A stretch of DNA of 64,000 nucleotides from a virus (IMGVR_UViG_3300016476_000987); one strand, 5' to 3'. Shown: positions 3,193-55,900, counted from the stretch's first letter. The notes: generated by a model not told the origin, from the letters alone. A program made the numbers and translations.

Positions 3193-3492
3193 ATGCCTAC
3201 ATACGAAAATTTTAAGCTATCCTTCAAAAACGAACACTTAATTATGGAACAAAACATAAAGTGTTCTATCAAGGACTATGAAATGAACTACACCTATAAT
3301 CCGTCTATATATGCGTCCGGAAGTGAAGAAAATATGTTGGCTTTTGCTTCCGGGTCAGATTTCACTCCTTATGCTACTATGGTAGGGATTTATAATGATT
3401 ATAATCAATTATTAGCTGTAGCTAAGTTATCACAACCGCTACCTATTTCTCCCGATACTGATACTAATATATTAATTAGAATAGACGTATAA
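3193..3492 (+). CDS. Small probable virion structural protein (tail-collar/baseplate-like C-terminal motif)
   Basis: PYATMVGIYNDYNQLLAVAKLSQPLP resembles the GLY-x(4)-L-x-A motif of tail-collar fibre-type proteins. Confidence 0.45.
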   Translation: MPTYENFKLSFKNEHLIMEQNIKCSIKDYEMNYTYNPSIYASGSEENMLAFASGSDFTPYATMVGIYNDYNQLLAVAKLSQPLPISPDTDTNILIRIDV

Positions 3493-3887
3493 TGATTAAA
3501 TTGTTAGATATACTATTAGAAGAAATAAAAGATATTCAATATAATCTTCCTAACTTTGAAAATGAGTGGGAAGAGGCTGTAAGGTACCCAGAATTTGTAG
3601 ATATGGGGAAAGAAGGGTGGATAAAAAAGGCCGGGGAAGGGTACTCAATCAAATATAGCCAAATTAAAAAAGTGCTAGGAAATGTAGATCTTAATTTTGA
3701 ATCTCTTGAAAAACCTAAAAAAGAAAGATTTTTAAAATCTTTTTCTGCCGGAAAAGTAGAGATGCCAATTGTGGTTAAGTTTTCAAATAAAGATTATGAT
3801 CTTGTAGCAGGAAATACGAGACTTGCCGGTTTAGTAAATAATAACATAGATCCTAAAATTTGGATTGTCGATTTGTCAAAAAAGTAA
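3492..3887 (+). CDS. ParB/Sulfiredoxin-like domain protein with MIKLLDILLEE leader
   Basis: MPIVVKF...YDLVAGNTRLAGL matches the ParB-N/Srx core (P-I-V-V...L-x-x-G-x-x-R). Confidence 0.6.
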   Translation: MIKLLDILLEEIKDIQYNLPNFENEWEEAVRYPEFVDMGKEGWIKKAGEGYSIKYSQIKKVLGNVDLNFESLEKPKKERFLKSFSAGKVEMPIVVKFSNKDYDLVAGNTRLAGLVNNNIDPKIWIVDLSKK

Positions 3888-3889
3888 TT

Positions 3890-4327
3890 ATGAGCAATTG
3901 GTTATATGAAGAAGTAGAAATAGATTCCGTAGAAAAACTTCCTGAAGGGGTTGTTGCTTTTGTGTATAGAATAACTCGTATTTCCGATGGTAAGTTTTAT
4001 ATCGGAAAAAAGAGCTTGTATTCAGAAAGAACAAAAGCGCTTACCAAAAAAGAACTCTCTGAGCAGACAGATAAAAGGAAGTCTAAAAAGAAGAAAGTAG
4101 TATCAGAAAGCGATTGGAAGACTTATTACGGCTCTGACATTGCTTTGAAAGAGGAAGTTAAGAAGAATGGTGCGGACGGCTTTAAAAGGGAGATTATAAA
4201 GCTTTGCTACAACAAAAAACAGGCTTCTTATCACGAAGTTAGACAGCAAATCCTGCATAATTGCCTAGAATCCGATAATTGTTGGAACGGGCAGATTCTT
4301 GGTAAGTTTTGGAGAAAAGACGTGTAG
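3890..4327 (+). CDS. GIY-YIG-like endonuclease (Seg-like)
   Basis: AFVYRITRISDGKFYIGKK, then SDWKTYYGS and REIIKLC. The ATG at 3890 is more plausible than the track's TTG at 3860. Confidence 0.65.
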   Translation: MSNWLYEEVEIDSVEKLPEGVVAFVYRITRISDGKFYIGKKSLYSERTKALTKKELSEQTDKRKSKKKKVVSESDWKTYYGSDIALKEEVKKNGADGFKREIIKLCYNKKQASYHEVRQQILHNCLESDNCWNGQILGKFWRKDV

Positions 4328-4339
4328 TTCCTATATTTG
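4308..4339 (+). promoter_or_regulatory. Bacteroidota-type housekeeping promoter (-33 TTTG / -7 TAnnTTTG)
   Basis: TTTG 4308-4311, 20-nt spacer, TATATTTG 4332-4339, 4 nt before primase ATG 4344; matches the established TTTG-N19-21-TAnnTTTG consensus. Confidence 0.7.
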
Positions 4340-4343
4340 TGGT

Positions 4344-8056: not shown

Positions 8057-8428
8057 ATGAACGAATTCGGATTATTTATAGGAACTCTACTACAATCTAG
8101 GACTCAAGCCCATATATTTCATTGGCAAGTAATGGGCCCTAGCGCAGATGCTAAACACAGGGCATTTGAAGCTTACTATGATGAAATAGTAGACATTCTT
8201 GATGAATTAGTAGAATCTTATCAAGGTAGGTATGGTGTCTATAAAGGATATCAAATGCCTAATCCTTTAAGAGAAGATGCAAATTATGTTCAATACTTCG
8301 AAGCTCTCTGCAAATTTGTAGAAGGCGTAAGAAAGACCATTCCCCAGGACTCCTATATTCAGAATCAAGTAGATGAAGTAGTGACTCTTATAGAAAAAAC
8401 TAAGTATAAACTTATAAACCTAGGATAA
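8057..8428 (+). CDS. Ferritin/Dps-like four-helix protein (DUF5856-like)
   Basis: TQAHIFHWQ...AKHRAFEAYYDEI...DELVESYQG has the H/E/D spacing of Dps-like ferroxidase helices. Confidence 0.7.
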   Translation: MNEFGLFIGTLLQSRTQAHIFHWQVMGPSADAKHRAFEAYYDEIVDILDELVESYQGRYGVYKGYQMPNPLREDANYVQYFEALCKFVEGVRKTIPQDSYIQNQVDEVVTLIEKTKYKLINLG

Positions 8429-9012
8429 TGAATTTTATTAGCATTCTAAAAGATCTGTCTGAAGATTGCGACTGCAATCTGTCTGAAGGCATGAAATACC
8501 ATAAGGATAATAATATCCCGTTAACTGAGAACATATATCGTCCTTCTTCTAAGAAATACTTTGAACTATTTGAAGAAGCAAGGCAGTTGCATAAACAAGG
8601 AAAATTACAACTGACCGAAGATGAAACTAAAATACTTGAAAATACAGATCTGGGAAAATTTGGTATTTACAACGGTATTCGTGTGCCCTTAGATTTCCCT
8701 ATGAGCGAAGAACAGCTTTTAGAAGTTAAGCACCAAGGTAAAGATGTACAACTGAATAAGCCTAAACGAGGCGGTAGTAAAAAATTCTACGTGTACGTGC
8801 GTAAGCCTGGGGGAGGAGTAAAGAAAGTGTCTTTTGGAGATACTACCGGCCTAAAAGCAAAAATAAATAACCCTAAAGCCAGGAAGTCGTTTGCAGCTAG
8901 GCATAAATGCGCTCAGAATAAAGACAGAACTAGTGCCGGATACTGGGCCTGTAGACTTCCTAGATATGCAAGTATGCTTGGATTAAAATCTAATTTTGGA
9001 GGGTATTGGTAA
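8428..9012 (+). CDS. Conserved phage protein, probable head protein (C-terminus DUF6321-like)
   Basis: KKFYVYVRKP...VKKVSFG...ARKSFAARHKC...AGYWACR; leader MNFISILKDLSE. Confidence 0.5.
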   Translation: MNFISILKDLSEDCDCNLSEGMKYHKDNNIPLTENIYRPSSKKYFELFEEARQLHKQGKLQLTEDETKILENTDLGKFGIYNGIRVPLDFPMSEEQLLEVKHQGKDVQLNKPKRGGSKKFYVYVRKPGGGVKKVSFGDTTGLKAKINNPKARKSFAARHKCAQNKDRTSAGYWACRLPRYASMLGLKSNFGGYW

Positions 9013-9269
9013 TGAATCCATATACAGAAAAGTATGTAAACGGATGGTTTTATAGGACTTTTACAGAAGATACGGCCAAAGCAGAAATGGTTTGGCATAG
9101 AGATAGAGAAGACAGGATAATAGAGCCTGTAGAGGCTACTGATTGGTTGTTTCAAATAGAAAATGAATTGCCGGTTCCGATAGAAGGACAATTATTTGTA
9201 TCTATGGGAGCTTGGCATAGGGCGATTAAAGGAACAGGGGAGTTAAAAATAAGAATAAAAAAATTATGA
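9012..9269 (+). CDS. Small cupin-like protein
   Basis: WHRDREDR...WLFQIENELP...WHRAIKG fits the two His-containing cupin motifs. Start ATG 9012 overlaps the upstream TAA. Confidence 0.5.
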   Translation: MNPYTEKYVNGWFYRTFTEDTAKAEMVWHRDREDRIIEPVEATDWLFQIENELPVPIEGQLFVSMGAWHRAIKGTGELKIRIKKL

Positions 9270-10009
9270 GAAACGACAGAGTATTGCTATCTCACTTACT
9301 TATAGAATCTATAGTAGAAGAGTATCATGTTGATGAAGGAATTAGAGATATGGCAAAAAAAGGAGCAGCTGTACTTGGTATAGGAGCAGCCGCAGCTTTA
9401 GGCATCAAAAAAGCCAGCGATAATTACTTTAATAAATCAGCAGATGCTGATAAGGTTTATAGTATTAAAGATGAAAAAGTAATGCCTCATAATATAATAG
9501 CGTTGAGAACTTCTTTTAAAGAGTCTAGGTATGATCCAAATGCAGTATCTCCTAGAGGCGCTAAAGGACTAACTCAGCTAATGCCTTCTGCTATTGAAGA
9601 CTATGCAAAATCAATAGGAAAAGATGTAGAAGATATAAATCCAATGGATATAAAAACTTCTATAGATATACAGATAAAAACAATGAAAGATCTATATAAT
9701 TCTAGTTTTATAAAAAAAGAAAATCAAAGCGAGGTAGTAAGACTTGCTAAGACTTTAGCAGCATATAATTGGGGAAGAGGCAATCTGTCTAGATTTTTAA
9801 GTAAATTAAAAGAAGAAGGAAAAGTTGATATATACAACTCATTAGATTGGGTAAAACAATTACCTCTTGAGACATCTGATTATATAAATAAAATACTATT
9901 AAAAAAAGATCCTAAATTTGAAAAAGAGTTCGAAAAAGCAATAAAATCCGACAAAAATAAAAAAATAGTAAGTATTTACAATAATTTAAAAAATCCATTT
10001 GGTAATTAA
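9266..10009 (+). CDS. Lytic transglycosylase (SLT family)
   Basis: KESRYDPNAVSPRGAKGLTQLMP (catalytic ES, GLxQ) and LAAYNWG (AYNxG). Confidence 0.9.
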   Translation: MRNDRVLLSHLLIESIVEEYHVDEGIRDMAKKGAAVLGIGAAAALGIKKASDNYFNKSADADKVYSIKDEKVMPHNIIALRTSFKESRYDPNAVSPRGAKGLTQLMPSAIEDYAKSIGKDVEDINPMDIKTSIDIQIKTMKDLYNSSFIKKENQSEVVRLAKTLAAYNWGRGNLSRFLSKLKEEGKVDIYNSLDWVKQLPLETSDYINKILLKKDPKFEKEFEKAIKSDKNKKIVSIYNNLKNPFGN

Positions 10010-10019
10010 ATATAAAGTT

Positions 10020-10595: not shown

Positions 10596-10604
10596 ATATT
10601 TATA
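10596..10604 (+). promoter_or_regulatory. Putative late promoter ATATTTATA
   Basis: Intergenic, 12 nt before ATG 10617. Confidence 0.6.
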
Positions 10605-10616
10605 AAAAACATATTA

Positions 10617-11183
10617 ATGAAATTCTTACAATTAATAAAAGAAGGAAAAGAAGAAAAGCCTTCTAAAGGATTATCAAAAAAACAAAAGTCTGCTGTAGTT
10701 AAAAAAGCTAAGGCAGGTAAAGATATTGGTAAAAAAGGCAAAGGATTTGAGAAAGTAGCAGCAAAAGCCGCTAAGCAATATGGCTCTAAAGAAGCCGGAG
10801 AGCGTGTAGCAGCAGCTGCTATGTGGAAAAACCTACAGAGAGAAGGTGCTGGCATGGATCATGAAGTATCTATGGCAGTTAATAGCTTAAAATCTATTAT
10901 GCAGTCTGTATCTATCCTAATGGAAAAATTAGGAGGCCAAGAAAGAAACATTCCAGGCTGGATTCAAGACCATATTACCAACGCTGAAAATTATATAGAT
11001 CAGGCTGCTCAGGGATTTCATGAAATAGAGAGTCAAGATTTAGATGAAAAGAAACTTACCGGAGCGGAAAAAAGAAAAAAAGAAGATATAATAAAATCCA
11101 TAGCCAAAAAAGAAGGAGGCAAAAGTAAATTGCAGCCAAAAGACTATGCTATAGCTACTTCTCAAGCAATTAAATCTGCATAA
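10617..11183 (+). CDS. Basic probable internal head protein
   Basis: Leader MKFLQLIKE-G; Lys-rich segments separated by L-x-(x)-E sites; DHEVSMA...PGWIQDHIT module. Confidence 0.5.
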   Translation: MKFLQLIKEGKEEKPSKGLSKKQKSAVVKKAKAGKDIGKKGKGFEKVAAKAAKQYGSKEAGERVAAAAMWKNLQREGAGMDHEVSMAVNSLKSIMQSVSILMEKLGGQERNIPGWIQDHITNAENYIDQAAQGFHEIESQDLDEKKLTGAEKRKKEDIIKSIAKKEGGKSKLQPKDYAIATSQAIKSA

Positions 11184-11184
11184 T

Positions 11185-11826
11185 ATGAAACTTATTTCTT
11201 TATTATCTCTCATACTAAAAGAGGCGAAATCTGAGCGTACTAAAACCGGGTATAAAGTACCAGGCAAGTACTTAACAAAAGATAAAGGGGATATGAAAGA
11301 CGAAATAGAGAGGGTGAGAAACTTAAGTTCTGATGATCCTTCTGCATACGGCAAATGGAAAGCAGATTATGCGGATAAATCTAAGACTAAAAAATATAAG
11401 ACTAAAAAATCTGCTGCTACTAAAGCTTACGAAAAGATGTTTGGTAAAAAAGAAGAATCTTTTATAAGCTATTTAGAAGCTGGGGGACAAAAAATACCGG
11501 GAAATATTACTCTATACAATCCTCAATTATCTTACTTAAAAGAAAAAGGTGTGAAAGAGTCAACGGATGGAAGAGAATTATTTTTTCCTATAAGCTTGGT
11601 CCAGGAACTAAGAAATGATGCCAGGGTTTCAGAATTTAAAAAAGGATTTATAGATACTTATCCGGATAGAGATGATTACATAGCTTCTCATGTATTATCT
11701 AGAATTAAAGATAAGTTAGAAAAAGAAGTAAGAGAAGTAAAAGTAAATGGAGTTGTTAAATATAGAGCCTTACAAGGAGAATTAACTCGTAATGGTACAT
11801 TTAGATTTGATGTACGTAAAAAATAA
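11185..11826 (+). CDS. Basic probable internal head protein
   Basis: Leader MKLISLLSLILKE-A; Lys-rich. Confidence 0.45.
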   Translation: MKLISLLSLILKEAKSERTKTGYKVPGKYLTKDKGDMKDEIERVRNLSSDDPSAYGKWKADYADKSKTKKYKTKKSAATKAYEKMFGKKEESFISYLEAGGQKIPGNITLYNPQLSYLKEKGVKESTDGRELFFPISLVQELRNDARVSEFKKGFIDTYPDRDDYIASHVLSRIKDKLEKEVREVKVNGVVKYRALQGELTRNGTFRFDVRKK

Positions 11827-11829
11827 AAA

Positions 11830-12114
11830 ATGAAACTACAAGATATACTAAAGGATATAATAAAAGAAGGATTTTCAGCCTCAGTAGAGAAGGCTTTAGC
11901 TAGTAAAGCAAAAGCTAGTGGAGTGTCTAAATCTATCATAAAAGCAGTATATCGAAAAGGTCTCGCAGCATGGAAAGGAGGGCACAGACCAGGAGTTCCG
12001 CAACACCAATGGGCTATGGGTAGAGTAAATTCCTTTTTAACAGGAAAAGGAGGAGCTAGAAAAGCAGATGCAAAACTATGGAAAAACGCTAAAAAATCAA
12101 AAAAGAAAAAATAA
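11830..12114 (+). CDS. Small basic protein (DUF5824-like)
   Basis: VYRKGLAAWKGGHRPG...WAMGRVNSF; leader MKLQDILKDIIKE-G. Confidence 0.55.
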   Translation: MKLQDILKDIIKEGFSASVEKALASKAKASGVSKSIIKAVYRKGLAAWKGGHRPGVPQHQWAMGRVNSFLTGKGGARKADAKLWKNAKKSKKKK

Positions 12115-12731: not shown

Positions 12732-13016
12732 ATGATAAAATTAATAGATCTTCTTAAAGAAGAATATGGAGGAGGAGACTATGTTCTTCCTAAAAGCCAC
12801 AAAGCAGGACTAAGAGTTCCTAAAGGCGGATCTTGCTGTGCTAATTGCGAATATTGGAAAGAAGGGAAAGACGGTAAGACCGGAAAATGTACTAATGAAT
12901 ATTACATTAAATGGGCCGGTACTGCCTCTATACCTTATGCACCAGATGAATATTGTACTGATTGGTGGGAGCCCAAAAAAGAGCAATCACCTGAAACCGA
13001 GGAGGAAAAACAATAA
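12732..13016 (+). CDS. Small Cys-rich protein with MIKLIDLLKEE leader
   Basis: GSCCANCEYW...GKC...YCTDWW, five or more Cys. Confidence 0.55.
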   Translation: MIKLIDLLKEEYGGGDYVLPKSHKAGLRVPKGGSCCANCEYWKEGKDGKTGKCTNEYYIKWAGTASIPYAPDEYCTDWWEPKKEQSPETEEEKQ

Positions 13017-14024: not shown

Positions 14025-15602
14025 ATGTCAGAACAAAAAAACATAAAAGAAGTAATTAGGCAAGAATATGTAAAGTGTGCAAAAGATCCAGTATACTTCT
14101 TGAAGCGTTATGTATTTATTCAAACAAGCAAAGGAAGAGTTTTATTTAGCCCATATCAGTTTCAAGACAAGTTATTACACTTACTAAATAAACACGATAG
14201 GGTTATTATATTAAAGTCTAGACAGCTGGGCATAACTACGTTATCGGCTGCTTATGCTTTATGGTTAATGATATTTCATAAAGACCAATCTATTCTTGCT
14301 CTAGCCCCAACTCAAGAAAAAGCCAGGAACATTGTGGATAAAGTTCGCTTTGCATACGCAGAGTTGCCGTCTTGGCTAAAAATAGAGGCTGTAGAGAACC
14401 ATAAATTAAGTTTGTGGCTGGCTAATGGTTCAAAGATTAAAGCGGCTTCAGGGGCCTCAGAAAGCGCCAGGGGCTATACTGCTAATATATTAATCCTTGA
14501 TGAGGCTGCATTTATAGAAAACGCAGAGGAGCTTTGGGGATCTGCACAACAGACTTTGGCTACCGGCGGTAAAGCTATCCTATTGTCTACTCCTAATGGT
14601 TTAGAAGCCTTCTTCCATAAAATGTGGTCAGACGCAGAAATGGGAGAAAATAACTTTGTCCCTATAAAACTTAGATGGGATGTGCATCCTGATAGAACTC
14701 AAAAATGGAGGGATGACCAGGACAAAGAGCTAGGTAAAAAGATGGCTGCGCAGGAATGCGATTGCTCTTTTCTTAGTTCGGGGGATACTTACTTTGAGTC
14801 AGATGACATAGAGTACTATTCTGAGCATTTAGAAGAGCCTATAGAGATGAGAGGGCATCAAAGAGATTACTGGATATGGGAATACCCGGAAGTAGGTAGA
14901 AATTACATGGTAATAGTGGATACGGCTAGAGGAGATGGATCAGATTACTCTACTATGCAAGTCTTAGACGTGTATTCTGGAGCTCAAGTAGCTGAATATA
15001 GAGGATCTGTGGATAGTAAACAACTCTCAAAATTAGCAATATCTATCTGTTTAGAGTATAATAGTGCTTTATTAATAGTAGAAAATACTGGATTAGGCCA
15101 CTCTACTATGAGTGATATTCTAGACATAGGATATAATAACATATACTATTCTCCAAAAGGAGATACTTTGAATGTATCTCAATACATGACTCAATTCTAT
15201 GAGTACGATACTTCAAAAATGACTCCTGGATTTACTACCTCAACTAAAACAAGGCCGGAGATACTTCTGGCTATGAGAGGGTATGTAAAAGACCATCTAA
15301 TAAAGATACGTTCCATAAGAACTCACAACGAAATGAGAACTTTTATATGGAAAAATGGTAAACCTCAAGCACAAACTGGGTATAATGATGATCTAATTAT
15401 GCCTTATGCCATAGGGTTGTATCTAAGAGATAGCGCCATACAGTATAGATCTCAGGGAGTAGATATGCAAAAAGCAGTTTTAAATGGGATTAGTAGACAG
15501 TCTGGCTATTCTACTTCTCCTAGTCTGCCTAGTAACTTTGTTAATCCCTATCAATTTAACATTAATGGACAAAATGAAGATATTAGTTGGTTAGTGAGGT
15601 AA
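14025..15602 (+). CDS. terL: Terminase large subunit (T4 gp17-like)
   Basis: KSRQLGITT (Walker A), ILILDEAAF (Walker B), STPNG, nuclease VDTARGDGSDYS and NDDLIM. Confidence 0.96.
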   Translation: MSEQKNIKEVIRQEYVKCAKDPVYFLKRYVFIQTSKGRVLFSPYQFQDKLLHLLNKHDRVIILKSRQLGITTLSAAYALWLMIFHKDQSILALAPTQEKARNIVDKVRFAYAELPSWLKIEAVENHKLSLWLANGSKIKAASGASESARGYTANILILDEAAFIENAEELWGSAQQTLATGGKAILLSTPNGLEAFFHKMWSDAEMGENNFVPIKLRWDVHPDRTQKWRDDQDKELGKKMAAQECDCSFLSSGDTYFESDDIEYYSEHLEEPIEMRGHQRDYWIWEYPEVGRNYMVIVDTARGDGSDYSTMQVLDVYSGAQVAEYRGSVDSKQLSKLAISICLEYNSALLIVENTGLGHSTMSDILDIGYNNIYYSPKGDTLNVSQYMTQFYEYDTSKMTPGFTTSTKTRPEILLAMRGYVKDHLIKIRSIRTHNEMRTFIWKNGKPQAQTGYNDDLIMPYAIGLYLRDSAIQYRSQGVDMQKAVLNGISRQSGYSTSPSLPSNFVNPYQFNINGQNEDISWLVR

Positions 15603-15607
15603 TTTAT

Positions 15608-15616
15608 ATATTTATA
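15608..15616 (+). promoter_or_regulatory. Putative late promoter ATATTTATA
   Basis: 9 nt before ATG 15626 of the homing endonuclease. Confidence 0.55.
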
Positions 15617-15625
15617 TATATAATA

Positions 15626-16357
15626 ATGGCTTATTTATATAGACATATTAGACTTGACACGAAAACTCCCTTTTATATAGGGATAGGCTCTGATGAAAAC
15701 TATACTAGAGCTTACGACAAAAGGAGTAGAAATAGACACTGGAGTAGTATAGTTAAAAAAGCAAATTATGAAGTTGAGATAGTACTTGATAATTTAAGTT
15801 GGGAAGAGGCTTGTGATAAAGAAATAGAGTTTATAAAACTATATGGTAGAAAGGATTTAAATGAAGGATGCTTATGTAATATGACTAATGGAGGTGATGG
15901 GATGTTGGGAGTTAGGCCATCCGATGAAAAAATAAAAAGATTTGTTGATTCAATAAGGAGAGAAGTTATTCAATACGATATGCAAGGTAATATTATAAGA
16001 GAATATGAATCAGCTTCTCAAGCAAAAAAAATAACAGGAATTAGTGAATCTCAAATAACATCTAATTGTAAAGGACATAAAGGTAAAAAGAGTGCTGGCG
16101 GATTTATTTGGAGATATAAAGACCCTAAAGAATGGTTCAGCCCTATATATAGTAATCATAAAAATGCTCATTGCCATAACCAGAAACATCAAAAAAAGGT
16201 ATTGCAATATGATATAGATGGGAATTTAATAGCCGAATATAGATCTATACGATATGCGGAGGAACAAACTAAAGTAGCCAGGGCTACTATAATAGCATGT
16301 TGTAAAGGAAAATATAAACATGCTGGCGGGTTTATTTGGAAATTTAAAATACAATAA
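15626..16357 (+). mobile_element. Free-standing homing endonuclease: GIY-YIG-like catalytic domain plus two NUMOD1-like HTH domains
   Basis: YLYRHIR...PFYIGIG...RAY...R, E...IEFIKLYG, CNMTNGGDG; two V-x-QYD-x-x-GN-x-I-x-EY-x-S...GGFIW repeats; inserted between terL and portal. Start reassigned to ATG 15626. Confidence 0.85.
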
Positions 16358-16367
16358 TTAATTAGTA

Positions 16368-18224
16368 ATGAGTAAAGTAGATAGATCGCTTTTTCCTAGA
16401 CTTAAAAGACTATTTTCGACTGATGTTATTCTGAGGAACGTGGGAGGAAAACAACTAAGAGTCATGGATGTAGAGAGGATCCAGTCTTTTGGAAGTTTAC
16501 AGACCAATAGTTTAGTAGACAGATTTACGAGGCTACACAAAGCCGGACAGAGGATGCAATTTAATCCTACTCTAAACTATCAAACTTTAAGATTACAATT
16601 ATATGCTGACTATGAGGCTATGGATACCGATGGTATTATAGCTTCTGTATTAGATATACTATCTGAAGAGACTACTTTAAAAGGAGAGACTAATGAAGTT
16701 TTGACAATTAGAAGTACTAATGAAAATATACAAAAAATTCTTTATAACTTATTTTATGATGTATTAAACGTAGAATTTAATCTACCGATGTGGATTAGAT
16801 CTATGTGTAAATACGGTGACTTTTTTCTAAAATTAGACATAGCTGAGAAGTTCGGTGTGTATATGGCTCGACCTCTTTCTGTGTATGATATGATTAGAGA
16901 GGAAGGACAAGACCCTAATAATCCCTCTTATATAAGATTCATATACGATCCTGTTGCAGTAGCAGGAGGAACCACCGCTACAAAAAGCAAAGAATACTTT
17001 GAAAATTTTGAAATAGCACATTTTAGATTACTTACAGACACTAATTATTTACCTTTTGGTAGAAGTTATATTGAACCGGCTCGTAAATATTTTAAGCAAT
17101 ACACTCTTATGATGGATGCTATGCTCCTTCATAGAATTATGAGAGCCCCGGAAAAGAGAATTTTCTATATAAATGTAGGTAATATTCCTCCGAATGAAGT
17201 AGATGCTTTCGTTCAAAAGACTGTAACTACTATGAAAAAAACCCCGTTTATGGACCAACAAACGGGGGATTACAACCTAAAATTCAATCTCCAAAACATG
17301 CTAGAGGATTTTTATATCCCTGTTCGTCCTGGAGATAACACTACTAAGATTGATACTGCTAAAGGACTAGAATATGCCGGTATTGAAGACGTTGAATTTT
17401 TGAGAGACCTTATGTTAGGTTCTTTAAAAGTGCCTAAATCCTTTTTAAACTATTCTGATGAGCTAAACGGTAAGTCTACTATAAGTGCTTTAGACGTTAG
17501 ATTTAGTAGAACAGTAGAAAGAATTCAAAGAATAGTCCTCAGTGAGCTTGAAAAGATTGCTTTGATACATTTATATGTTCAAGGATACGAAGATGCTGAT
17601 CTTGTAAATTTTAAACTTGGTCTAAACAATCCTTCAATTATTTATGAGCAAGAAAAAATTGCTCTATTAAAGGAAAAAGTAGACTTAGCAGCTAGCATCT
17701 CAGAGAAGAAGCTATTTTCTTCTGATTGGATAGCAGATAAGCTATTCCAAATGAGCGAAGATCAGCTCAATGAACAAAGAGAGTTGGTTGTAGAGGACGT
17801 AAAAAGAACTTTTAGATACAACCAGATTGAAAATGAAGGAAACGATCCTGCTCTTTCTGGAGAATCGTTTGGTACTCCTCATGACTTAGCTTCTATATAC
17901 AATAGAAACGCTAAGAAAGAACAAGAAACTCCAGACGGATATGATGAAAAAGAGAAAAATCCTATAGGAAGACCTAAAGAGAAGGCATCCATATATAAAA
18001 CAGACGACTCTTCTTTTGGTGCAGATCCGCTAGGAGCTAGAGGAATGAAGGATATAAATGCAAGTAAAGATAGTCTAACTTACAAAAATAAACCTAGAGC
18101 TTTCGCTTTAGAATCTATGAAAGGTTTAGAAGAAATGAAAAAGAAAAAAATAGTGCTTTTTGAACAAAAAACTCATGAGTCCGGGTTGTTAGACGAAAAA
18201 AACATTATTAACGAAGATATTTAA
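16368..18224 (+). CDS. gp20: Portal protein (T4 gp20-like)
   Basis: RSMCKYGDFF, HRIMRAPEKRIFYINVGNIPP, LEDFYIPVR, LKVPKSFL; follows terL. Confidence 0.95.
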   Translation: MSKVDRSLFPRLKRLFSTDVILRNVGGKQLRVMDVERIQSFGSLQTNSLVDRFTRLHKAGQRMQFNPTLNYQTLRLQLYADYEAMDTDGIIASVLDILSEETTLKGETNEVLTIRSTNENIQKILYNLFYDVLNVEFNLPMWIRSMCKYGDFFLKLDIAEKFGVYMARPLSVYDMIREEGQDPNNPSYIRFIYDPVAVAGGTTATKSKEYFENFEIAHFRLLTDTNYLPFGRSYIEPARKYFKQYTLMMDAMLLHRIMRAPEKRIFYINVGNIPPNEVDAFVQKTVTTMKKTPFMDQQTGDYNLKFNLQNMLEDFYIPVRPGDNTTKIDTAKGLEYAGIEDVEFLRDLMLGSLKVPKSFLNYSDELNGKSTISALDVRFSRTVERIQRIVLSELEKIALIHLYVQGYEDADLVNFKLGLNNPSIIYEQEKIALLKEKVDLAASISEKKLFSSDWIADKLFQMSEDQLNEQRELVVEDVKRTFRYNQIENEGNDPALSGESFGTPHDLASIYNRNAKKEQETPDGYDEKEKNPIGRPKEKASIYKTDDSSFGADPLGARGMKDINASKDSLTYKNKPRAFALESMKGLEEMKKKKIVLFEQKTHESGLLDEKNIINEDI

Positions 18225-19099: not shown

Positions 19100-20671
19100 A
19101 TGTCTTTTAATTTTTATAATTCTATTATTGAAGCAGATACTCAAAAAACCTCTGGGGACTCTGATTATTATATAATGTTTTTGTACAAACAAAAAGGCAA
19201 GCCTACTGAACAAATAGAGATACTAAAAACCCTAACACCAGAACAAGCCAGTAAAATAAAAGATATTGGAAAATTAGGAAAAACTTATTATACGTATACT
19301 ATAGGTCCCGCAAAAAAAAATAAAGAAAAACAAGGCGCTTCTTATACTACATACAATGTAAGCCCTGATAAAACACACCACATTTTAGATAAAAAATTAT
19401 ACAAAGTTATCTATAATAAAAAAGATTTAAATAAAATTTATTTTTTACATACAACAGAGCAAAAGTATAACGAATTATTATCTCAAATATCTTCTAAAAA
19501 GATAGACAAATCTACAATAAAAATAGAAGAAATTAATTTTGAGGACCTTGTAAAAAAAATAAAAAATGAGCCTGTTGGAGAAGATGTTGACTATCTGAAA
19601 TCCCATGCAGATATACAGGATTTAATAAATAAAGAAGCCGGATTAGCGGCAGCAGAAAAAAGAAATACAGCAGTAAAAAAAGAAAAAGAGAAAGCTCCAG
19701 ATTCTATTGATTATGTACAAAAATCTATAGAATTATATGGAGATTTTGATAAAAATATACTAAATCAAGCTGCTAATTTTTTATTTGATAGAAAAAACAT
19801 AAGTCTATTAGATAAAATAATAGATTATCATATAAAATATAACACTCCCACTAGATCAGAGACTGAAAGAAAAGACGATTACAACAGTAGATTACGATCT
19901 ATAGAAATACTAATAGATAGGCTAAATAAAGAGATTAAAGAGGCTAAAGTTAAAGAAGCTGTAATAAAAAGATTTATATTCTTATATGTTATACAAAAAC
20001 ACCCAAAAAGAATTAGTGTAGTTGATAAAATAATAGATGTTTATTCTGGGAAAACTAAAAGCGATTTTAAAAAAGGTATAAAAGGATATACAAAAAAAGA
20101 TTCTGTCAAAGACAAAACCAAAGACGAAAAACCTGTCAAAGACAAAATCAAAGACAAAGTGTCTTCGATATCTCCGGATGAAAAAAAATCTGAGCGTCCA
20201 AACTATTTTGTGTATAGGTTAGATTTAGATGGAAACGAAGTTAAGAAAAGAGAATACATTAGCCCAGAAGAAGTAGAAAGTAGGCTTGCTGCTGCTAAAA
20301 AAAATGAGGAAGAGTACATAAAAGACAAAAAAGAATTTCAAAAATGGTTTAACTGGAAAGGTACTGGAGAAATGCAGAAACCTAATATAAAATCTCCGGA
20401 AAAATATGGAGATATAAGAATAGAAAAAATAGACCAAGTATCAGAAATGTCAGCTACCGGTACTGGAGCTGCTGTTTCTCCTGGGGAAGGAGAGGGGGTA
20501 GCAACTAAATATGCTTTTGCTGGTCCGGGCGGTACAAAAGCAAAAAGAAAAAAAAGTATCGTTCAAAGTGATTCGACAAAAATCATAAAAGCTGATGAAA
20601 GTTATCGAATAAAAAATGACGCAAAGTCGATTTTTTGGGAATCAGTTCGATGGTTAATTAATAATAAATAA
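19100..20671 (+). CDS. Large Lys-rich probable internal head/core protein
   Basis: Leader ...IIE-A; low complexity; short conserved-looking C-terminal EMSATGTG...TKYAF motif. Confidence 0.45.
   Translation: MSFNFYNSIIEADTQKTSGDSDYYIMFLYKQKGKPTEQIEILKTLTPEQASKIKDIGKLGKTYYTYTIGPAKKNKEKQGASYTTYNVSPDKTHHILDKKLYKVIYNKKDLNKIYFLHTTEQKYNELLSQISSKKIDKSTIKIEEINFEDLVKKIKNEPVGEDVDYLKSHADIQDLINKEAGLAAAEKRNTAVKKEKEKAPDSIDYVQKSIELYGDFDKNILNQAANFLFDRKNISLLDKIIDYHIKYNTPTRSETERKDDYNSRLRSIEILIDRLNKEIKEAKVKEAVIKRFIFLYVIQKHPKRISVVDKIIDVYSGKTKSDFKKGIKGYTKKDSVKDKTKDEKPVKDKIKDKVSSISPDEKKSERPNYFVYRLDLDGNEVKKREYISPEEVESRLAAAKKNEEEYIKDKKEFQKWFNWKGTGEMQKPNIKSPEKYGDIRIEKIDQVSEMSATGTGAAVSPGEGEGVATKYAFAGPGGTKAKRKKSIVQSDSTKIIKADESYRIKNDAKSIFWESVRWLINNK
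20103..20158 (+). repeat. 30-bp tandem duplication in coding sequence
   Basis: ctgtcaaagacaaaaccaaagacgaaaaac followed by ctgtcaaagacaaaatcaaagacaaa. Confidence 0.75.
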
Positions 20672-20678
20672 TTAGAAC

Positions 20679-20687
20679 ATATTTATA
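20679..20687 (+). promoter_or_regulatory. Putative late promoter ATATTTATA
   Basis: 3 nt before ATG 20691. Confidence 0.6.
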
Positions 20688-20690
20688 GAC

Positions 20691-23282
20691 ATGACAACGC
20701 AAAATTTATATCAGAAGACTCTAAACGAAGAAATGAGCCCTAGCCAATTTCTGTGGCATGTGCGTAGAGATCCTCAATATAGCTCTATTATTACTAATAC
20801 TATGTCTTTTGAAGACACAATTAATTGTCTAAAGACAAAAGGATTTATATGGGAAGCCAAAGATCAAAGCTCTAATATAAAACCTATGGATTTTTTAGGC
20901 AGTTTTAAAAAATTAACAGAAGCTGCTACTAAAAAGCAAAAGCTAAAAGGAGGAAAAGGCGACAAACTTACTCCCGACCAGGTAAATTATTTCGAGTTTA
21001 CTAAAGGTTGGAAGCATGAGTTGGAGCATACTGATGATATAGATAAAGCTAAAGAGATTGCTTTAGATCATCTTGCTGAAGATCCTATGTATTACACTAG
21101 GCTTCAAATGGTTCAATTTGAAAAAAGTAAAAAAGAAAGGTCTGATTTGCCTATTGATATAAGCAAGAAAAAAGCGTCTGTAAAAGACGAAAAAAATCAG
21201 ATGACTCCTATAAAAAAAGCTAAAAAAGAAAAGCCTAATGTCTCTGATTCCGGAAAGCAAGAGAAAGCTAGGAGTAAAAATGCCGGATTTAAAAAAATGA
21301 AAGGCGGTTCCGGAGAAATGAAATCTCTAAAAGAATCTTTATCTGAGCAATCCGATGAAGATGATTTATTTGGAGATATTGATGTATCTAAATACAAAAA
21401 TGTTATAGATAAGTCTAAAGAACAAAAAAAAAGTAAAGACCCCGCCCCTCCGACAACGACAAGAGGAAAAGACATAGAAACTGCAAGTGCAGCTAAGCCT
21501 AAAGATAAAAAAGCAGATAAACCAAGTATCTCAAGTACCTCAAGTACACCAAAAGAAAAAAAAGATTTAGCTAGTCTAAAAGGAAATTTTGCACTAACTA
21601 CACTAGATAACAGAAGTACAAATGTTTTGGCAGATGCTGTAAGATATAAAAATTTAGTAAACTTATTAAAAAATGAAGATGACCCTACTAATAAATACAA
21701 AAGGTATTTGTCAATAACTCCTTTAGATAAAAATGCAGAAAAAATAGTAAAAGGATACGAAAAAGTAAGAGAGAAAGAAAAACAAGAAAGAATAAAAGCA
21801 GGAGAGGTGCAGGCAGCTATAAGAAGAGGAGAAAAGCCTGTACAAAAGACTAAACAGGCTCCTAAAGTAGATGCTAATAAAATAAAAAAAGAAAAGCCTA
21901 CTACCTATGAAGGAGATCCATATGAGGTGGACTTTTATTCAGATGGAAAAGTAATAAAAAATAAAAATAATACAATCGGATCTAAAATACTATCTAAAAT
22001 TATAGGAGTACCGGAAGAGGCAATAGAGGTAGGAAAAACATATTCTGTAAAAAAGAATATTAAATCCGACAATTTTAAAAATTACTATGTTTATAGTGGA
22101 GGTGATATAGAAGTAAAAGTAGTTAAAAAAATAAATAAAACAGTTTCTCCACAAAAAGTAAAAAGAGAAGAAGATAAAAAAGCCATAGAAAAAATAAAGA
22201 CAGCAATAGAAGATATTGATAATAATCTTCATTATTTCTATAATAAAAACACTAAAGATTTAGCATCATTTTCTGATTTATCTTACGGTCAAGAGTTTGC
22301 TAGAAATAATAGTGGATATGAATATTTAGGATTAGGCACTACGGCTGCTAGTAGGTTAAAAAAAGAAATAAGCGGTTTAATATCTGAAGAAAAGCAGCAA
22401 TCAAAAATTAACGGCATAGAGGTAGTATTTAATATCCAAGATCCTGAGAACTTAAGTGCTATTGAACAAGTAAGAAATACAATTAGTGGCGCTAAATTCA
22501 ATAAAGATAAAAAAGAATTAACTCTTAATATGTCCGGTAAAGGAGATTTAGTCTTTACTGCTGACGCTTCTGGCAAGCCTGTGGGAGTCTATTTTTCTCA
22601 AGGAAAACAATCTGGGGTTTCTAATAAAGTAGTAGACTCTGCTATTAAAGATTCTTTAGATAAAATACTCAAAAAATACTATCCTAAACCTCAAGACCTA
22701 GAAAAGAGTGTTGATAAAGATAAAATATTAGAAGATTACATTCGTAAAATAATCAGAAAGACTCTTAAAGAAGGAGACGAAGGCCCTTTTATAGGATCTA
22801 GCGGTCCTGAAGTTGTAAAAAAAAAGTTAATTGACTATATGCAAAGATATAGTCCTGATTGGAATACGGATCCTAGCCCTAAGCAAAGGGCTGTAGGAGC
22901 CGAATATCAAGGGATTATTGCAAAGTTAGTAGCCGAATTAAACGATCAAGAGCCTGGGCTAGGTACTAGTATTTATAAACAATACACTGGTAAAGTTCTT
23001 AGGGGCGATCAAGCAGATCAAGCTACGCCTCCTCCTCAAACTTTAGCATATGATCCTGCTAAGTTAGTAAGCAGAGGAGGAAGAATAGCTGAAAACGACT
23101 CTTTACCTTCTGAGGACGAAATTGTTAGAGATGCTAAAAGATATAATGATCCTAAATCTCAAGAGTTTAAAAACGCACTTAAAAATCTTCAGGCGCTAAT
23201 CCAAGATTATGGAGAAAAAGGAAAAGATCTGCCTAAAAAAGTTTTAGATGCCTTAAGACAAATGAGCGATATAAATAAATAA
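20691..23282 (+). CDS. Large multi-segment probable head/core protein containing a DUF5661-like domain
   Basis: KGWKHELEHTDDIDKAKEIALDHLAEDPMYYT (DUF5661-like); many L/I-x-E sites; immediately upstream of the prohead protease. Confidence 0.55.
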   Translation: MTTQNLYQKTLNEEMSPSQFLWHVRRDPQYSSIITNTMSFEDTINCLKTKGFIWEAKDQSSNIKPMDFLGSFKKLTEAATKKQKLKGGKGDKLTPDQVNYFEFTKGWKHELEHTDDIDKAKEIALDHLAEDPMYYTRLQMVQFEKSKKERSDLPIDISKKKASVKDEKNQMTPIKKAKKEKPNVSDSGKQEKARSKNAGFKKMKGGSGEMKSLKESLSEQSDEDDLFGDIDVSKYKNVIDKSKEQKKSKDPAPPTTTRGKDIETASAAKPKDKKADKPSISSTSSTPKEKKDLASLKGNFALTTLDNRSTNVLADAVRYKNLVNLLKNEDDPTNKYKRYLSITPLDKNAEKIVKGYEKVREKEKQERIKAGEVQAAIRRGEKPVQKTKQAPKVDANKIKKEKPTTYEGDPYEVDFYSDGKVIKNKNNTIGSKILSKIIGVPEEAIEVGKTYSVKKNIKSDNFKNYYVYSGGDIEVKVVKKINKTVSPQKVKREEDKKAIEKIKTAIEDIDNNLHYFYNKNTKDLASFSDLSYGQEFARNNSGYEYLGLGTTAASRLKKEISGLISEEKQQSKINGIEVVFNIQDPENLSAIEQVRNTISGAKFNKDKKELTLNMSGKGDLVFTADASGKPVGVYFSQGKQSGVSNKVVDSAIKDSLDKILKKYYPKPQDLEKSVDKDKILEDYIRKIIRKTLKEGDEGPFIGSSGPEVVKKKLIDYMQRYSPDWNTDPSPKQRAVGAEYQGIIAKLVAELNDQEPGLGTSIYKQYTGKVLRGDQADQATPPPQTLAYDPAKLVSRGGRIAENDSLPSEDEIVRDAKRYNDPKSQEFKNALKNLQALIQDYGEKGKDLPKKVLDALRQMSDINK

Positions 23283-28732: not shown

Positions 28733-29130
28733 TGATTAAGTTAGTTGACATATTATTAGAGGGTAGATTCAAAAAATATAAAAAAAAGGAAACTATAAAA
28801 AAGACTTATCACACTTATGCGTGTGATTTTGTAATAAAGTTTCTAAAAAGAGTTAATAGAACTCAAGCTACCGAAAGAATTCGTGGAATAAAAACTGTAA
28901 CAATCGTTCAAACTTTGACGGATCTTAATCTAGAAAAGTTCAATACAACTTCTGTTGAGTATGATTTTGAATTGGTTAGGATTAAGTTTGTTACTAATAG
29001 AGACCCAAATACCCACATGAAATTCATCCAAAAAGCTTTAATAAAGTCAGATCCAGAGAACGGAATTGATAACATTATCGGCATAGTGGGGGCTAGTCCT
29101 AGAATAGATACACTAAAAAAAGTAGATTAA
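28732..29130 (+). CDS. Hypothetical protein with MIKLVDILLEG leader
   Basis: TAATG-coupled ORF in the neck operon. Confidence 0.55.
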   Translation: MIKLVDILLEGRFKKYKKKETIKKTYHTYACDFVIKFLKRVNRTQATERIRGIKTVTIVQTLTDLNLEKFNTTSVEYDFELVRIKFVTNRDPNTHMKFIQKALIKSDPENGIDNIIGIVGASPRIDTLKKVD

Positions 29131-52250: not shown

Positions 52251-52259
52251 ATATTTATA
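52251..52259 (+). promoter_or_regulatory. Putative late promoter ATATTTATA
   Basis: After the terminator, 5 nt before ATG 52265. Confidence 0.6.
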
Positions 52260-52264
52260 TAAAA

Positions 52265-52879
52265 ATGAGTAGTTATAATATAAAATATGATGATAAGTCT
52301 TTGATCTTCATAGATCACGTAAAAAAAGAATGTAAAAAGCATAAAGTTACATGTAGCCTCAGAAATGCTAAAAATGTTAGAGTAGATGTTGGAATGTTAG
52401 CATCCGGATACTTCGATGAAACTACTCCTATTTTAGTATGTTCTATGAATAGAATAGATGCTATTGAGATATTAGTTCATGAGTACTGTCATTTAACTCA
52501 ATGGGTAGAACAGATTCCCATATGGAAAGAATGCGAAAAAAGCATTCCTAAGTTCTTTGGATGGTTACAAGGGGACAGAATAAAGAATGTTAAAAAGCAT
52601 ATGGAGAATTGTAGAGAATTGGAACTAGATAATGAGAAGAGATCTGTAAATATGATAAAACAATTTGAGCTTAATATAGATATTAACCAGTATATTAAGA
52701 AGGCAAATGCTTATGTCTATTTCTACACTTATATGTTGACGACTAGGAGATGGGCTAAAAAGAAAAATAGTCCATACAGTAATGTTTCATTAATAGAATC
52801 CATGCCAAATTATTTTGTAGAAGACTATAGTATTATTCCTAAAAATATAGAAAGAGTGTTTATTGATCAAAAAATCTAA
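52265..52879 (+). CDS. Zincin-like (HExxH) metallopeptidase domain protein
   Basis: ILVHEYCHLTQW plus downstream ELELDNEKR. Confidence 0.6.
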   Translation: MSSYNIKYDDKSLIFIDHVKKECKKHKVTCSLRNAKNVRVDVGMLASGYFDETTPILVCSMNRIDAIEILVHEYCHLTQWVEQIPIWKECEKSIPKFFGWLQGDRIKNVKKHMENCRELELDNEKRSVNMIKQFELNIDINQYIKKANAYVYFYTYMLTTRRWAKKKNSPYSNVSLIESMPNYFVEDYSIIPKNIERVFIDQKI

Positions 52880-52887
52880 TATTTATA
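52879..52887 (+). promoter_or_regulatory. Putative late promoter ATATTTATA
   Basis: 18 nt before ATG 52906. Confidence 0.6.
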
Positions 52888-52905
52888 TCATATAATACGA
52901 TAATT

Positions 52906-55900
52906 ATGTCACAAGTTAAAAAATTAGATAACCTAATTAATAAAGTTATTGAAGAAGAGCTGACTGCTTATAATAAAATAAAAGAACAAAGTCAAGAAGA
53001 GTTTATTACTTCTGACGGAACTTCAAAGACCCTCACTACCCAACAAAAAGACAGAATTAGAAAAGCTAAACCTGGCACTTCCATTTCTTATAGAAAAGCG
53101 GGGTCTACTCCATCTACTACAATGGAAGAAGGAGAAATAGAACAAGAAGATCCTGAGGAAGCTCCTGCACCTTCCGCAGCTGATATTGCCGGTAAAATGT
53201 CTGAAATTTTAGACAAATTGAATAATATGTCTGAAATGAAGGATGATCCAAAATATGAAAAGCATGCTGCTAAAGCTGCTAAGTATATGGAAGCTGCTAA
53301 ATCTGCCTTAGAAGGTCTTACTAATTATGAGACCATGCTAGAAGAAAAAGATAAGCAAAAACAAGAAAAAGAAGCAACTGGCTTATTAAATCTTATTAGA
53401 AGGGCCTTAAATAAACTCATAAAAGACAAAACAACAGTAGAAAAGATAATGAATAAAATGCCAGTAGCTAAGGCTTTAGAATTACTAACCGCTACTGGAA
53501 AAAATGTCGATGAACAAAAAGTTGCAAAAGCCATGCTGAATGTGGCTCTTAAAGAGTCTTTTTTAAATCAATCCACTACATATACAAATATAAATGAGGA
53601 AGATGGCACCTCAAGTAGAAGGCAAAAATCTCTCGATAAATATAGAGAACTAGCAGATAAGTATATGAAAGATGACTCCATTTCAAAAGCAGATAAAAAT
53701 GCTTTTAAAGATATGTCTTTTATTGATAAACAAAAGGTTATTTTTAGATACGGAAATACACTAAAACCAAGTACTAAAACTGATACTAAAGACGATTCCG
53801 AAAAAAAAGAAGAGCCTAAAGTAGACGCTGATATTGACACCACTGGTAGCAAGGCTAAAATTGAAAAAGCAGTTTCTGCTGTCGCAGGTTCTTCTGCTAA
53901 AATTCCTGTAACAATAAAAGATCTTAACAAATTTAAACCAGAAATATCAAAATATGCTGATGAAATAGTAGTAGACTTAACTAGTAAAGGCAAAGAAATT
54001 TTTTATACTTTAGGAATAGATAATTCAAAATTTATTTTTAATAAAAAGAAAGGAGCCTTTACATCAGCTACAGGAGAAAAAGGAACTAAACGTAAAAACA
54101 AAATATCAGACGTACTATCTAAAGAAGAGATTGGCACTATAATAAAAGCATTATCCTCAAAAGTAAATAATACTCCCGTTAGCGCTGAGATTAAAAACAA
54201 GGCAAAAGAGGCTATTTCTAAATTAAAGATGTATATATACGGCACGTATTTTTCATTATCTGAGGTGCCGGAACAGGAATTTGATCAATTTTTAAAATCA
54301 ATTGATATAGTATCTAGTGTATCTGATAAAAAAGGTCTAGAGAGATTATCTACGCCAGAGTATGTTAAATTACTCGGAAAGATAAGTAAAGAAGACGAAG
54401 AGAAATACTTAACGGGAAAAGAAAAAAATATTCCTATATATGAAGAAGAATTATCTCGATATCAAATAGATCTTGCCGATTATAAATACAGGATGTCTAT
54501 TTACGAAAAAAAGATGGATTCTTATAATGAAAAGATAAAAGCTCACCCAGAGTGGAAAAGTACTTTAAAAAAACCTTTACCTCCTAGTAATCCAGCTACT
54601 CCAAAAATTTTGACGAACCCGAAGTATTCTGGTTTAATAAAAAATCTAGAAAAAAATGCAGAAAACTATGTTAAAGAAAAACAACCAGAGATTTTAAAAT
54701 ACGAAAAAGAGCTTGATCAGTATGTGAAAGATTATAATGAATATGAGAAAAGATTAGAAAAAGCAACGAAAGCCCATAAACAAAAAAGGGCGATTTTTAT
54801 GAAAAATCTAGCTGCTTATAATACAGAAATAGAAAAAATAAAAAAACTAGCTGGAGGTAATAAAGAAGTAGAAAAAGAAGAAATTAAAAAAAGAAATTTA
54901 AAAGAACCTTCGACTCCTTTTCTTGATCAAAGCTCTTTGAATAAACCAAAATTCCCGGAGGAACCAAAAATTAAAGACTATTCTAGTTTAATTAGTAATT
55001 TCAATAGAATTAATCCTTTTACAAAAGAAAAAGTAAAATTAATTGCTAGTAGAAAAGAAAAAGACAAAGAGGGACTTATTAAAGGCAGAGACACGGGATT
55101 AGAAGAATTTTCTAGCTCTGACAAAGATCTATTTGTAGAGTATTTAAAAGATCTAGGTAAAAAAATGTATGAAGAATCTAGAAAATTTTATACAGAATTT
55201 ACAAATAAGATAGATCCATTAATAAACATTGCTAGTTTATTTATTAAATACAAAAATTCAAAATCTACTTCAGACGAATTTAAAAAAACAGCTTCTAGAT
55301 TATTAGACAGTACTGTAGTAGATATAAAAAAGATCCTAGCAGATATGCAAGACGAGGGATATAATATAAATTCGTATTTAAATAAATTAAAAAGAACAAC
55401 AGATGATGCTAAAACTGCTTCTTCAAAACTAGATGCTCCAGAAGAAGAAAAAGTAAAAGGATCCTATTCCTATAAAAAACTAGAATTCGAAAAGGAGATG
55501 TCTAAATATCAAAAAGATCTTGATAAATACAAAAAGGATAAGGCTGCATATGAAGACTATTTTGAACAAATCAAAAAAGATCCGGATCTTAAAAATACGC
55601 TAGAACAACCGCCCCTTCCAGAAAAGCCAACTCCTCCGAAAGCTCCGGAAAATCCAAGGTATGTATCATTAATGAAAGATTTAGAAAATAACTATTTTAC
55701 AAAAGATGAATTGGACGCTCCTAAAGAGAAAAAGAAGTATATAGCTATCGAAAAGATATTAAAAATGGGGGAAAAACTGTTTATCACAGATAAGGATAAA
55801 GAAGATAATCCCTACATCGAAAGAGATAGGACAGAGAAAATGAAGTTTATCACTAATAAACTAAATCAGTTAAACTACAAAAAAGTAGCAGGTTTAGAGT

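Follow-up and report, generated by a model that had tools for sequence, protein, structure and literature searches.

A stretch of 64,000 nucleotides (nt) of the viral genome IMGVR_UViG_3300016476_000987, referred to here as the window, contains a series of genes that begin with nearly the same short peptide, typified by MIKLIDLLKE and ending in glutamate, and the question raised by this locus is what such a leader could do for proteins that are otherwise unrelated. In bacteriophage T4, a capsid-targeting sequence (CTS) is carried by IPI, IPII and IPIII, which are internal proteins, by Alt and by gp24, and is removed by the prohead protease gp21 (Mullaney and Black 1996; reviewed in PMC9026906, PMC5694885, PMC3012670). 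The T4 internal proteins join the core of the prohead through the CTS, and gp21 strips gp23, gp24, Alt and those internal proteins of their N-terminal propeptides (PMC5694885). The internal proteins of T4 are basic, residues 4 and 7 of IPIII matter for its targeting and residues 8 and 10 for its processing, and the gp23 propeptide taken off is 65 residues long (PMC9026906). Comparison of the window with T4 makes it probable that this capsid-targeting and gp21-processing system is also at work in the 'Far-T4' lineage to which the window belongs, with a much larger and swappable set of cargo proteins.

The window holds 57 plausible genes, all on the + strand. The canonical tag, MIKL[LIV]D[IL]L[LK]E, opens three of them that are unrelated to one another (3492, 12732 and 28732), and looser helices with a hydrophobic-x-Glu end open five more (8428, 9266, 10617, 11185 and 11830; Table 1). 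The tags are 9 to 14 residues long, stand at the extreme N-terminus and have LLE, LKE, LLE, IKE, LKE, IKE, LSE and LIE as their final three residues. A first-pass annotation of the same DNA had listed seven core N-termini of this kind, at 3492, 12732, 28732, 11830, 11185, 10617 and 8428, and all were found; its claim that the tagged proteins are unrelated was borne out by an all-against-all BLASTP comparison of their bodies, which gave no mutual similarity. Its list of looser candidates stood in part, with 9266 retained by a looser rule described below and 19100 and 20691 plausible but weak. The product of 13019 has no helix-plus-hydrophobic-x-Glu pattern, nor do its relatives, and 52906 encodes a 1042-amino-acid (aa) product in the tail block, 3' of the tail tube gene; neither candidate is supported. 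About eight window genes are well supported, in place of the dozen or so accessory proteins that had been proposed. The eight tagged proteins are more basic than the other 49 (Mann-Whitney P ~4e-4). No Pfam or PHROGs family was assigned to 3492, 10617, 11185 or 28732, and for 8428 the sole match in these databases was phrog_7595, a family of unknown function; the ESM Atlas returned nothing, or only virus-only hypothetical clusters, for 28732 and 8428.

The proteins of the prohead itself also carry L-x-E segments at their N-termini, as had been pointed out in the first-pass annotation: the protease (..SLLE/S), the scaffold protein (MKTDLLKE/A) and the major capsid protein (MNVQSLLE/S; the slash follows the glutamate). 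The last five residues of the scaffold start (24072-24095), DLLKE, are identical to the end of the tag MIKLIDLLKE encoded at 12732-12761, and DLLK is kept at the scaffold start in relatives; the tag may imitate the N-terminal helix of the scaffold.

A rule was derived from T4 alone, without window data to avoid circularity. The N-termini read from the T4 genome (NC_000866) are MKTYQEFIAE in IPII and IPIII, MAKINELLRE in gp24 and MELITELFDE in Alt, and the resulting rule is M-x-x-hydrophobic-x-[DE]-hydrophobic-hydrophobic-x-E. Applied to both strands and all frames of T4, it matches five places only, namely IPII, IPIII, gp24, Alt and gp61.1. On both strands of the window DNA it matches exactly 3492, 12732 and 28732, with none in a reversed control, and among the N-termini of the window proteins it finds 3 of 57 where 0.028 were expected (P ~3e-6). 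Chance is excluded as the source of the core tag set because these three were found by an independent rule that predicted so few. A looser rule, devised post hoc with the data already seen, gave 8 matches against 0.69 expected in the window, 14 against 3.7 in Flavobacterium phage vB_FspM_immuto (immuto) and, in a relative with a complete genome of 173 kb, 12 against 4.0. The canonical tags carry Leu4, Ile or Leu at position 7, Leu8 and Glu10, which are the determinant positions of IPIII. The proposal that this phage uses a targeting consensus different from that of T4 was therefore abandoned, since the same ten-residue format is found in both, with hydrophobic residues at 4 and 7, an acidic residue at 6, Leu8 and Glu10.

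The fifth T4 match, gp61.1 (NC_000866, 18966-19130, - strand), is an uncharacterised protein of 54 aa that begins with MKTFKEFIKE and has the primase gene as its neighbour. Because this start is almost identical to the CTS of the internal proteins, gp61.1 may be a head-targeted protein that has gone unrecognised.

What is conserved is the peptide and not the DNA. Between the three canonical tags 7 to 12 of the 30 nt differ, and any two of them are separated by 3 to 5 synonymous codon changes. The 30 nt 5' of them differ at 19 to 21 positions and are unrelated; in tags from the IMG/VR collection the amino acids are fixed and the codons vary. The domain family of 3492 has more than 240 homologues, of which the best 120 were used to count leaders. 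A hydrophobic-x-Glu leader ending 5 to 14 residues before the conserved domain is present in 100 of the 107 single-domain members, a few members have no leader at all, and in the 12 members with an extra module between the N-terminus and the domain a leader-like extreme N-terminus is kept in 10. At least six leader types are found on this one domain (MIKLIDILKE, MKLIDILLE, MGQLKL..ILKE, MNQLTLAQLIGE, MKHLKLFE and MKKSQL..I.E). Relatives of 8428 in 43 loci carry other hydrophobic-x-E leaders on the same body (MKLSQIRVLIKE, MERLRKLIKE, MNKLKQLISE), and among 27 homologues of 12732 the leader is kept in nearly all, with Leu8 at least 90% conserved. No leader-like start was seen in any relative examined of the untagged neighbour families 3193, 3860, 8057, 9006 and 12118. 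The interchange of leader types that all end in hydrophobic-x-E on a single domain points to selection on a property of the peptide, and not on a DNA string.

AlphaFold2 models were consistent with a tag that is separate from its cargo. In the model of 3492 (predicted local distance difference test, pLDDT, 90.5 overall) residues 1-10 are detached at a pLDDT of ~51, so that a low-confidence tag helix lies ahead of a confidently folded domain; the model of the 12732 family has low confidence throughout (pLDDT 59.8) and was too poor for a fold search. A helix at residues 4-11/12, with low pLDDT, is predicted in both. All of the top 50 PDB matches to the 3492 model (50/50) are of the ParB/Noc/sulfiredoxin type, the best of them a weak match (E 0.017, probability 0.99, template-modelling score ~0.42). 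The body, in which a Gly-x-x-Arg-type motif was sought and the conserved segment DLVAGNTRL found, has no Pfam match and is tentatively assigned a ParB/Srx fold.

The protease that would act on the tags is encoded in the window. The gp21-type enzyme that the first-pass annotation had placed at 23286 was confirmed by its Pfam score of 91 bits, by a match to PDB entry 5jbl (1e-17) and by the catalytic His and Ser. His73 and Ser129/130 are invariant in ten relatives, and the GELDH histidine and GISSRG serine correspond to GELNHP and GVSSRG of T4. BLASTP aligned LVE62/QSQ of the window capsid protein with LTE65/AEI of T4 gp23. An S77 protease was found in all five of the longest tag-bearing contigs (136-181 kb, with a completeness of 94% or more in four) and, among five further tag-bearing fragments, in both of the two with a portal gene. 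It is thus present in 7/7 of the examined tag-bearing contigs with a head module, none of which has a head module without it. The paper describing the Far-T4 phages (PMC4360716) makes no mention of a protease or of internal proteins.

The distribution of the tag was determined by scanning IMG/VR with a degenerate DNA pattern for M-I-K-[LF]-hydrophobic-D-hydrophobic-[LF]-x-E, which yielded at least 142 matches at no fewer than 120 loci. Among the 142 matches listed, 140 stand at the start of an open reading frame (ORF) no shorter than 50 aa, and in 136 the ATG is the first one in frame to follow a stop codon. With the tag removed, the 140 tagged proteins listed form at least 50 clusters without detectable similarity to each other. 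Homologues of other, untagged window genes are present in 89 of the 120 listed loci (pieces of up to 15 kb), a terminase in 23 and a portal in 17, and the tag-bearing contigs are those of Far-T4-type phages. The tag is nearly invariant across a clade in which the capsid proteins are ~45-55% identical. A narrower pattern, run against 185,579 bacterial and archaeal species with a single genome for each, gave 4 matches, 1 of them genuine, compared with 23 within the 120 listed viral loci; with such rarity in cellular genomes, the tag is a phage feature. The sole genuine 'cellular' ORF encodes an Acb1/2H-like protein; the contig that carries it (JAQVTJ010000150.1, 2.9 kb) had been placed in a Methanobacterium sp. 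bin and is most likely mis-binned phage DNA.

Among cultured relatives, the tag is present in immuto, a phage of Flavobacterium sp. LMO8, where immuto26A_40 opens with MIKLIDLLTE/S and an NT5C-like protein also has a leader. In the head-proximal region of Microcystis phage Mel-JY01 canonical MIKL tags were absent and leader-like starts were few and weak, so the tag is not universal among the nearest cultured relatives. Immuto has two more multi-copy leader families on unrelated proteins, MENFDLKKFLVEN(K/R)LT and MKKSQL..II.E (positions 1803, 103806, 117631, 118632 and 125241; and 102294, 102880, 113188 and 123355). Both end in hydrophobic-x-Glu, and the MKKS type is also found on the 3492-type domain in metagenomes.

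The cargo found behind the tag in relatives includes an ART-PolyVal ADP-ribosyltransferase, which exceeds its cut-off with 42 bits, an Acb1-like 2H phosphodiesterase, which is level with its cut-off at 27.6 bits, and a PBECR3 nuclease-like domain, which at 23.9 bits does not reach the required 30, together with alpha/beta hydrolases, many P-loop kinases and NT5C-type nucleotidases. The first three would fit injected effectors, and one of the proteins that T4 packages, Alt, is likewise an ADP-ribosyltransferase. The main block of tag genes in the window (8428-13016) lies directly 5' of the terminase gene, and 28732 lies inside the neck module. In immuto, 8 of the 14 loose-rule matches fall in the 17 kb before the terminase. 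In the complete relative four tag genes follow one another at 99.5-101 kb, further ones precede the terminase or belong to the head and neck modules, and a gene with the leader MKLLDLLKE stands at a position near that of 28732.

A box ATATTTATA is found 10-30 nt (in a few cases up to 64 nt) before 10617, 12732 and many structural genes, and also before non-structural genes. The form (A)TATTTATA has 22 forward copies in the window, mostly 10-30 nt (up to 64) before 16 start codons that include those of many head, neck and tail genes, and is a candidate late or middle promoter of the lineage. The late box of T4, TATAAATA, is found ahead of the terminase (14011) and of the protease (23270). The shared box hints at co-expression of the tag genes with the structural genes.

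Two explanations would deny the peptide a function, and both fare poorly. The resemblance might be compositional, an AT-rich genome producing N-termini rich in Lys, Ile, Leu and Asn that are alike by chance. The window has a G+C content of 30-40%, and the looser candidates 13019, 52906 and 18252 are indeed either at the level of chance or situated within conserved domains, but for the core set this explanation was refuted by the rule statistics (3 against 0.028 with the independent rule, 8 against 0.69 with the loose rule, reversed controls 0). It also leaves unexplained that nearly all listed IMG/VR matches begin an ORF (140 of 142) and are first ATGs (136 of 142), and that the untagged neighbour families have no such N-termini in any relative; we regard it as scarcely credible. 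The shared start might instead be a joint in the DNA, used for cassette recombination or for translation initiation, with the encoded peptide functionless. The tag genes do lie in a variable region in which the cargo differs between relatives, but a DNA joint is hard to reconcile with 7 to 12 differences in 30 nt, synonymous changes, unrelated upstream sequences, fixed amino acids with varying codons and the replacement of leader types on one domain, and it is given very little weight.

The two remaining explanations give the peptide a function. If the peptide is the CTS of this lineage, it would act as a short amphipathic helix of ~10 residues, canonically M-I-K-L-[ILV]-D-[IL]-L-x-E, that binds the scaffold core during prohead assembly so that the attached protein becomes enclosed; the gp21-type (S77) prohead protease would then cut after the terminal Glu of hydrophobic-x-Glu and release the tag, and the freed, mostly basic cargo would stay in the head with the DNA and enter the host on infection. 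Core binding, cleavage after Glu, presence in the virion and injection are steps that we infer. The principal rival holds that the tag is a docking or recognition signal for some other partner, such as a modifying enzyme, a chaperone, a hub protein, a membrane or a host protease, and that it may stay uncleaved. GroEL/GroES are encoded by immuto, some of the cargo (kinases, nucleotidases) looks metabolic and a bulky residue frequently follows the Glu, all of which would suit such a partner. However, a Pfam search of 30 other window genes produced no candidate modifying enzyme and left the protease as the only candidate partner found, the S77 protease accompanies the tag in the contigs examined and its expected specificity matches the last three residues of the tag, the T4-derived rule transfers unadjusted, and the tag lacks the long run of hydrophobic residues expected of a membrane or secretion signal. 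Docking to another partner is accordingly judged unlikely, and is the one rival to which appreciable weight is given.

Several observations weigh against the capsid-targeting explanation. The kinases and nucleotidases fit it less obviously, as there is no apparent rationale for carrying in the capsid what look like enzymes of nucleotide metabolism. Not all tag genes are near the head module: 3492 adjoins the primase gene, and 24569 in immuto and 4514 in the complete relative are also distant from it. The association with S77 is partly phylogenetic, and co-occurrence alone is no proof of a functional link because all of the tag-bearing contigs examined belong to one broad lineage. The residue after the Glu is often bulky, with Ile in 27 of the 121 distinct tags among the matches listed; the T4 sites read from the genome have Ala or Ser after the Glu, and Alt would have Asp there, provided that its cut falls behind Glu10. 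An argument from a linker behind the tag was dropped, as linker-type residues are not enriched there (0.29 against ~0.25). The literature searched yielded no virion proteome for this lineage. Every computational test that was run fits the capsid-targeting reading of the first-pass annotation, which stands apart from its distinct consensus and its dozen proteins, with packaging, cleavage and injection remaining its conjectural part. A broader claim, that the MIKLIDLLKE-type tag and its sister leaders form a lineage-wide address label for the whole injected set of the abundant freshwater and marine Far-T4 phages, a set that would run from dozens into hundreds of enzyme families delivered ready-made with the DNA, among them ADP-ribosyltransferases, Acb1-like phosphodiesterases, nucleases, kinases and nucleotidases, is put forward tentatively, its chances being somewhat short of even.

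The window comes from a large uncultured 'Far-T4' myovirus of Bacteroidota, with a phage genome of ~184 kb. The Far-T4 assignment was made on the basis of the major capsid protein (25110-26759), which is 54% identical to that of immuto and 52% identical to that of Mel-JY01, and less close to those of Rhodothermus phage RM378, Pelagibacter phage HTVC008M and T4, and of the T4-type head and tail genes recognised by Pfam: large terminase (14025), portal (16368), Peptidase_S77 (23286) and Gp23 (25110), with PhoH, tail sheath, tail tube and primase (4299) assigned as well. The products of 19100 and 20691 are plausible but weak candidates for prohead-core or internal head proteins.

Table 1 Features of the window; a slash marks the position after the Glu at which a leader ends
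Feature	Position	Strand	Evidence and remarks
Putative cargo, canonical tag MIKLLDILLE/E, predicted ParB/Srx-fold body	3492..3887	+	T4-derived rule match; AlphaFold2
Putative cargo, variant tag MNFISILKDLSE/D, then Cys-x-Cys motif and conserved domain phrog_7595	8428..9012	+	Isoelectric point (pI) 9.6
Lytic transglycosylase (SLT), leader MRNDRVLLSHLLIE/S	9266..10009	+	Pfam SLT 4e-14; PHROG 'internal virion protein with endolysin domain' 8e-12; loose-rule match
Basic Lys-rich putative cargo, tag MKFLQLIKE/G	10617..11183	+	pI 9.7; ATATTTATA box 20 nt 5'
Basic putative cargo, tag MKLISLLSLILKE/A	11185..11826	+	pI 9.7; a relative in another locus opens with MIKLKDILNE
DUF5824 putative cargo, tag MKLQDILKDIIKE/G	11830..12114	+	Pfam DUF5824 6e-14; pI 11.4 without tag
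Cys-rich putative cargo, canonical tag MIKLIDLLKE/E, GGG linker	12732..13016	+	T4-derived rule match; ATTTATA box 10 nt 5'
Putative cargo in neck module, canonical tag MIKLVDILLE/G	28732..29130	+	T4-derived rule match; pI 9.9
Large terminase, homing endonuclease, T4-type portal	14025..18224	+	Pfam Terminase_6N, NUMOD1, Portal_T4; start of head module, directly 3' of main tag-gene block (8428-13016)
Two large basic proteins in portal/protease interval, MSFNFYNSIIE/A and MTTQNLYQKTLNE/E	19100..23282	+	Position; pI 9.3-9.4; leader assignment weak
Prohead protease, Peptidase_S77 (T4 gp21 type)	23286..23900	+	Pfam PF03420 8e-26, 91 bits against cut-off 27; PDB 5jbl 1e-17
Scaffold protein, MKTDLLKE/A start, 15 [LIV]-x-E sites	24072..25082	+	Assigned from position in protease/capsid-protein interval
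Major capsid protein (Gp23 family), L-V-E62/Q at T4 maturation site	25110..26759	+	Pfam Gp23 3e-73, domain from residue 78
Candidate promoter box (A)TATTTATA, examples	2309, 5841, 10597, 12721, 18228, 20680, 26844, 27541	forward	
Candidate promoter box (A)TATTTATA, further examples	31137, 41283, 48100, 52252, 52880, 56109, 57166, 59464	forward	

Several other features of the window were recorded. The 863-aa product of 20691-23282 contains DUF5661 at residues 102-140, and in four metagenomic relatives DUF5661 is fused with a leader on one side and a 3492-type ParB/Srx domain on the other. Two genes of homing-endonuclease type were found, one SegE-like with a GIY-YIG domain (2e-30) at 3860-4327, adjoining the primase gene, and one NUMOD1/I-HmuI-like at 15587-16357, inserted in the terminase/portal interval. 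The region 13585-14019, which encodes a 144-aa product just 5' of the terminase, was considered together with 5870-8026. Relatives of the 144-aa product are proteins of 560-780 aa of which it is the C-terminal part; these have a nucleotidyltransferase motif (GGFKPPT.GH) at their start, and several have leader-like starts, e.g. MSLVNELLKGLLE. Two giant repeat-rich proteins (31201-40725, 3174 aa, and 41333-46498, 1721 aa) are paralogues for the greater part of their length (BLASTP 4e-34) and are probably fibre or decoration proteins.

To our knowledge, the T4 CTS, the textbook example of how a phage loads finished proteins that it will inject, has been documented for a handful of T-even proteins; here the same format recurs almost unchanged in a large uncultured aquatic clade, on at least 50 unrelated families, several of which have domains familiar from counter-defence. 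If the capsid-targeting explanation is true, it would provide a simple sequence rule for listing the injected proteins of metagenomic phages, a candidate list of early-acting anti-defence and host-takeover effectors from uncultured phages, and a portable ten-residue tag for packaging foreign proteins into Bacteroidota phages, and the presence of the tag in the cultured phage immuto makes the idea directly testable. A full-text literature search for five variants of the leader string retrieved no paper, and only MKTYQEFIAE of T4 was found.

Compared with the T4 CTS, the tag is likewise a ~10-residue N-terminal element on unrelated, mostly basic proteins, with hydrophobic residues at 4, 7 and 8, an acidic residue at 6 and Glu10; its last residues form the L/I-x-E motif of an S77 protease encoded alongside it, a motif that also occurs on the protease, scaffold and capsid protein, and the cargo varies between related phages. 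It differs in its wording (MIKLIDLLKE here, MKTYQEFIAE in T4), in the existence of several interchangeable leader types, in a far larger cargo (at least 50 families) that includes enzymes, and in its Bacteroidota hosts, and it is known from sequences alone. In the phiKZ-like phages, a related protease cuts after Glu in the propeptides of ejection or inner-body proteins (phiKZ gp175, SPN3US gp245; PMC5694885, PMC10052503). There, as is proposed here, the N-termini of head-carried, ejected proteins are trimmed after Glu by a related protease, whereas the motif of those phages is S/A/G-x-E or A-x-E and their propeptides, often longer than 100 residues, contain no short shared decapeptide. The polyvalent proteins of phages and conjugative elements, reportedly described by Iyer and colleagues in 2017, are said to enter the host together with the DNA. 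They use the same vocabulary of domains as the tagged proteins (ART-PolyVal, PBECR3, ParB-like and SLT-type hydrolases), but they are giant multi-domain fusions, whereas in the phages considered here each domain is a separate small gene with a tag of its own.

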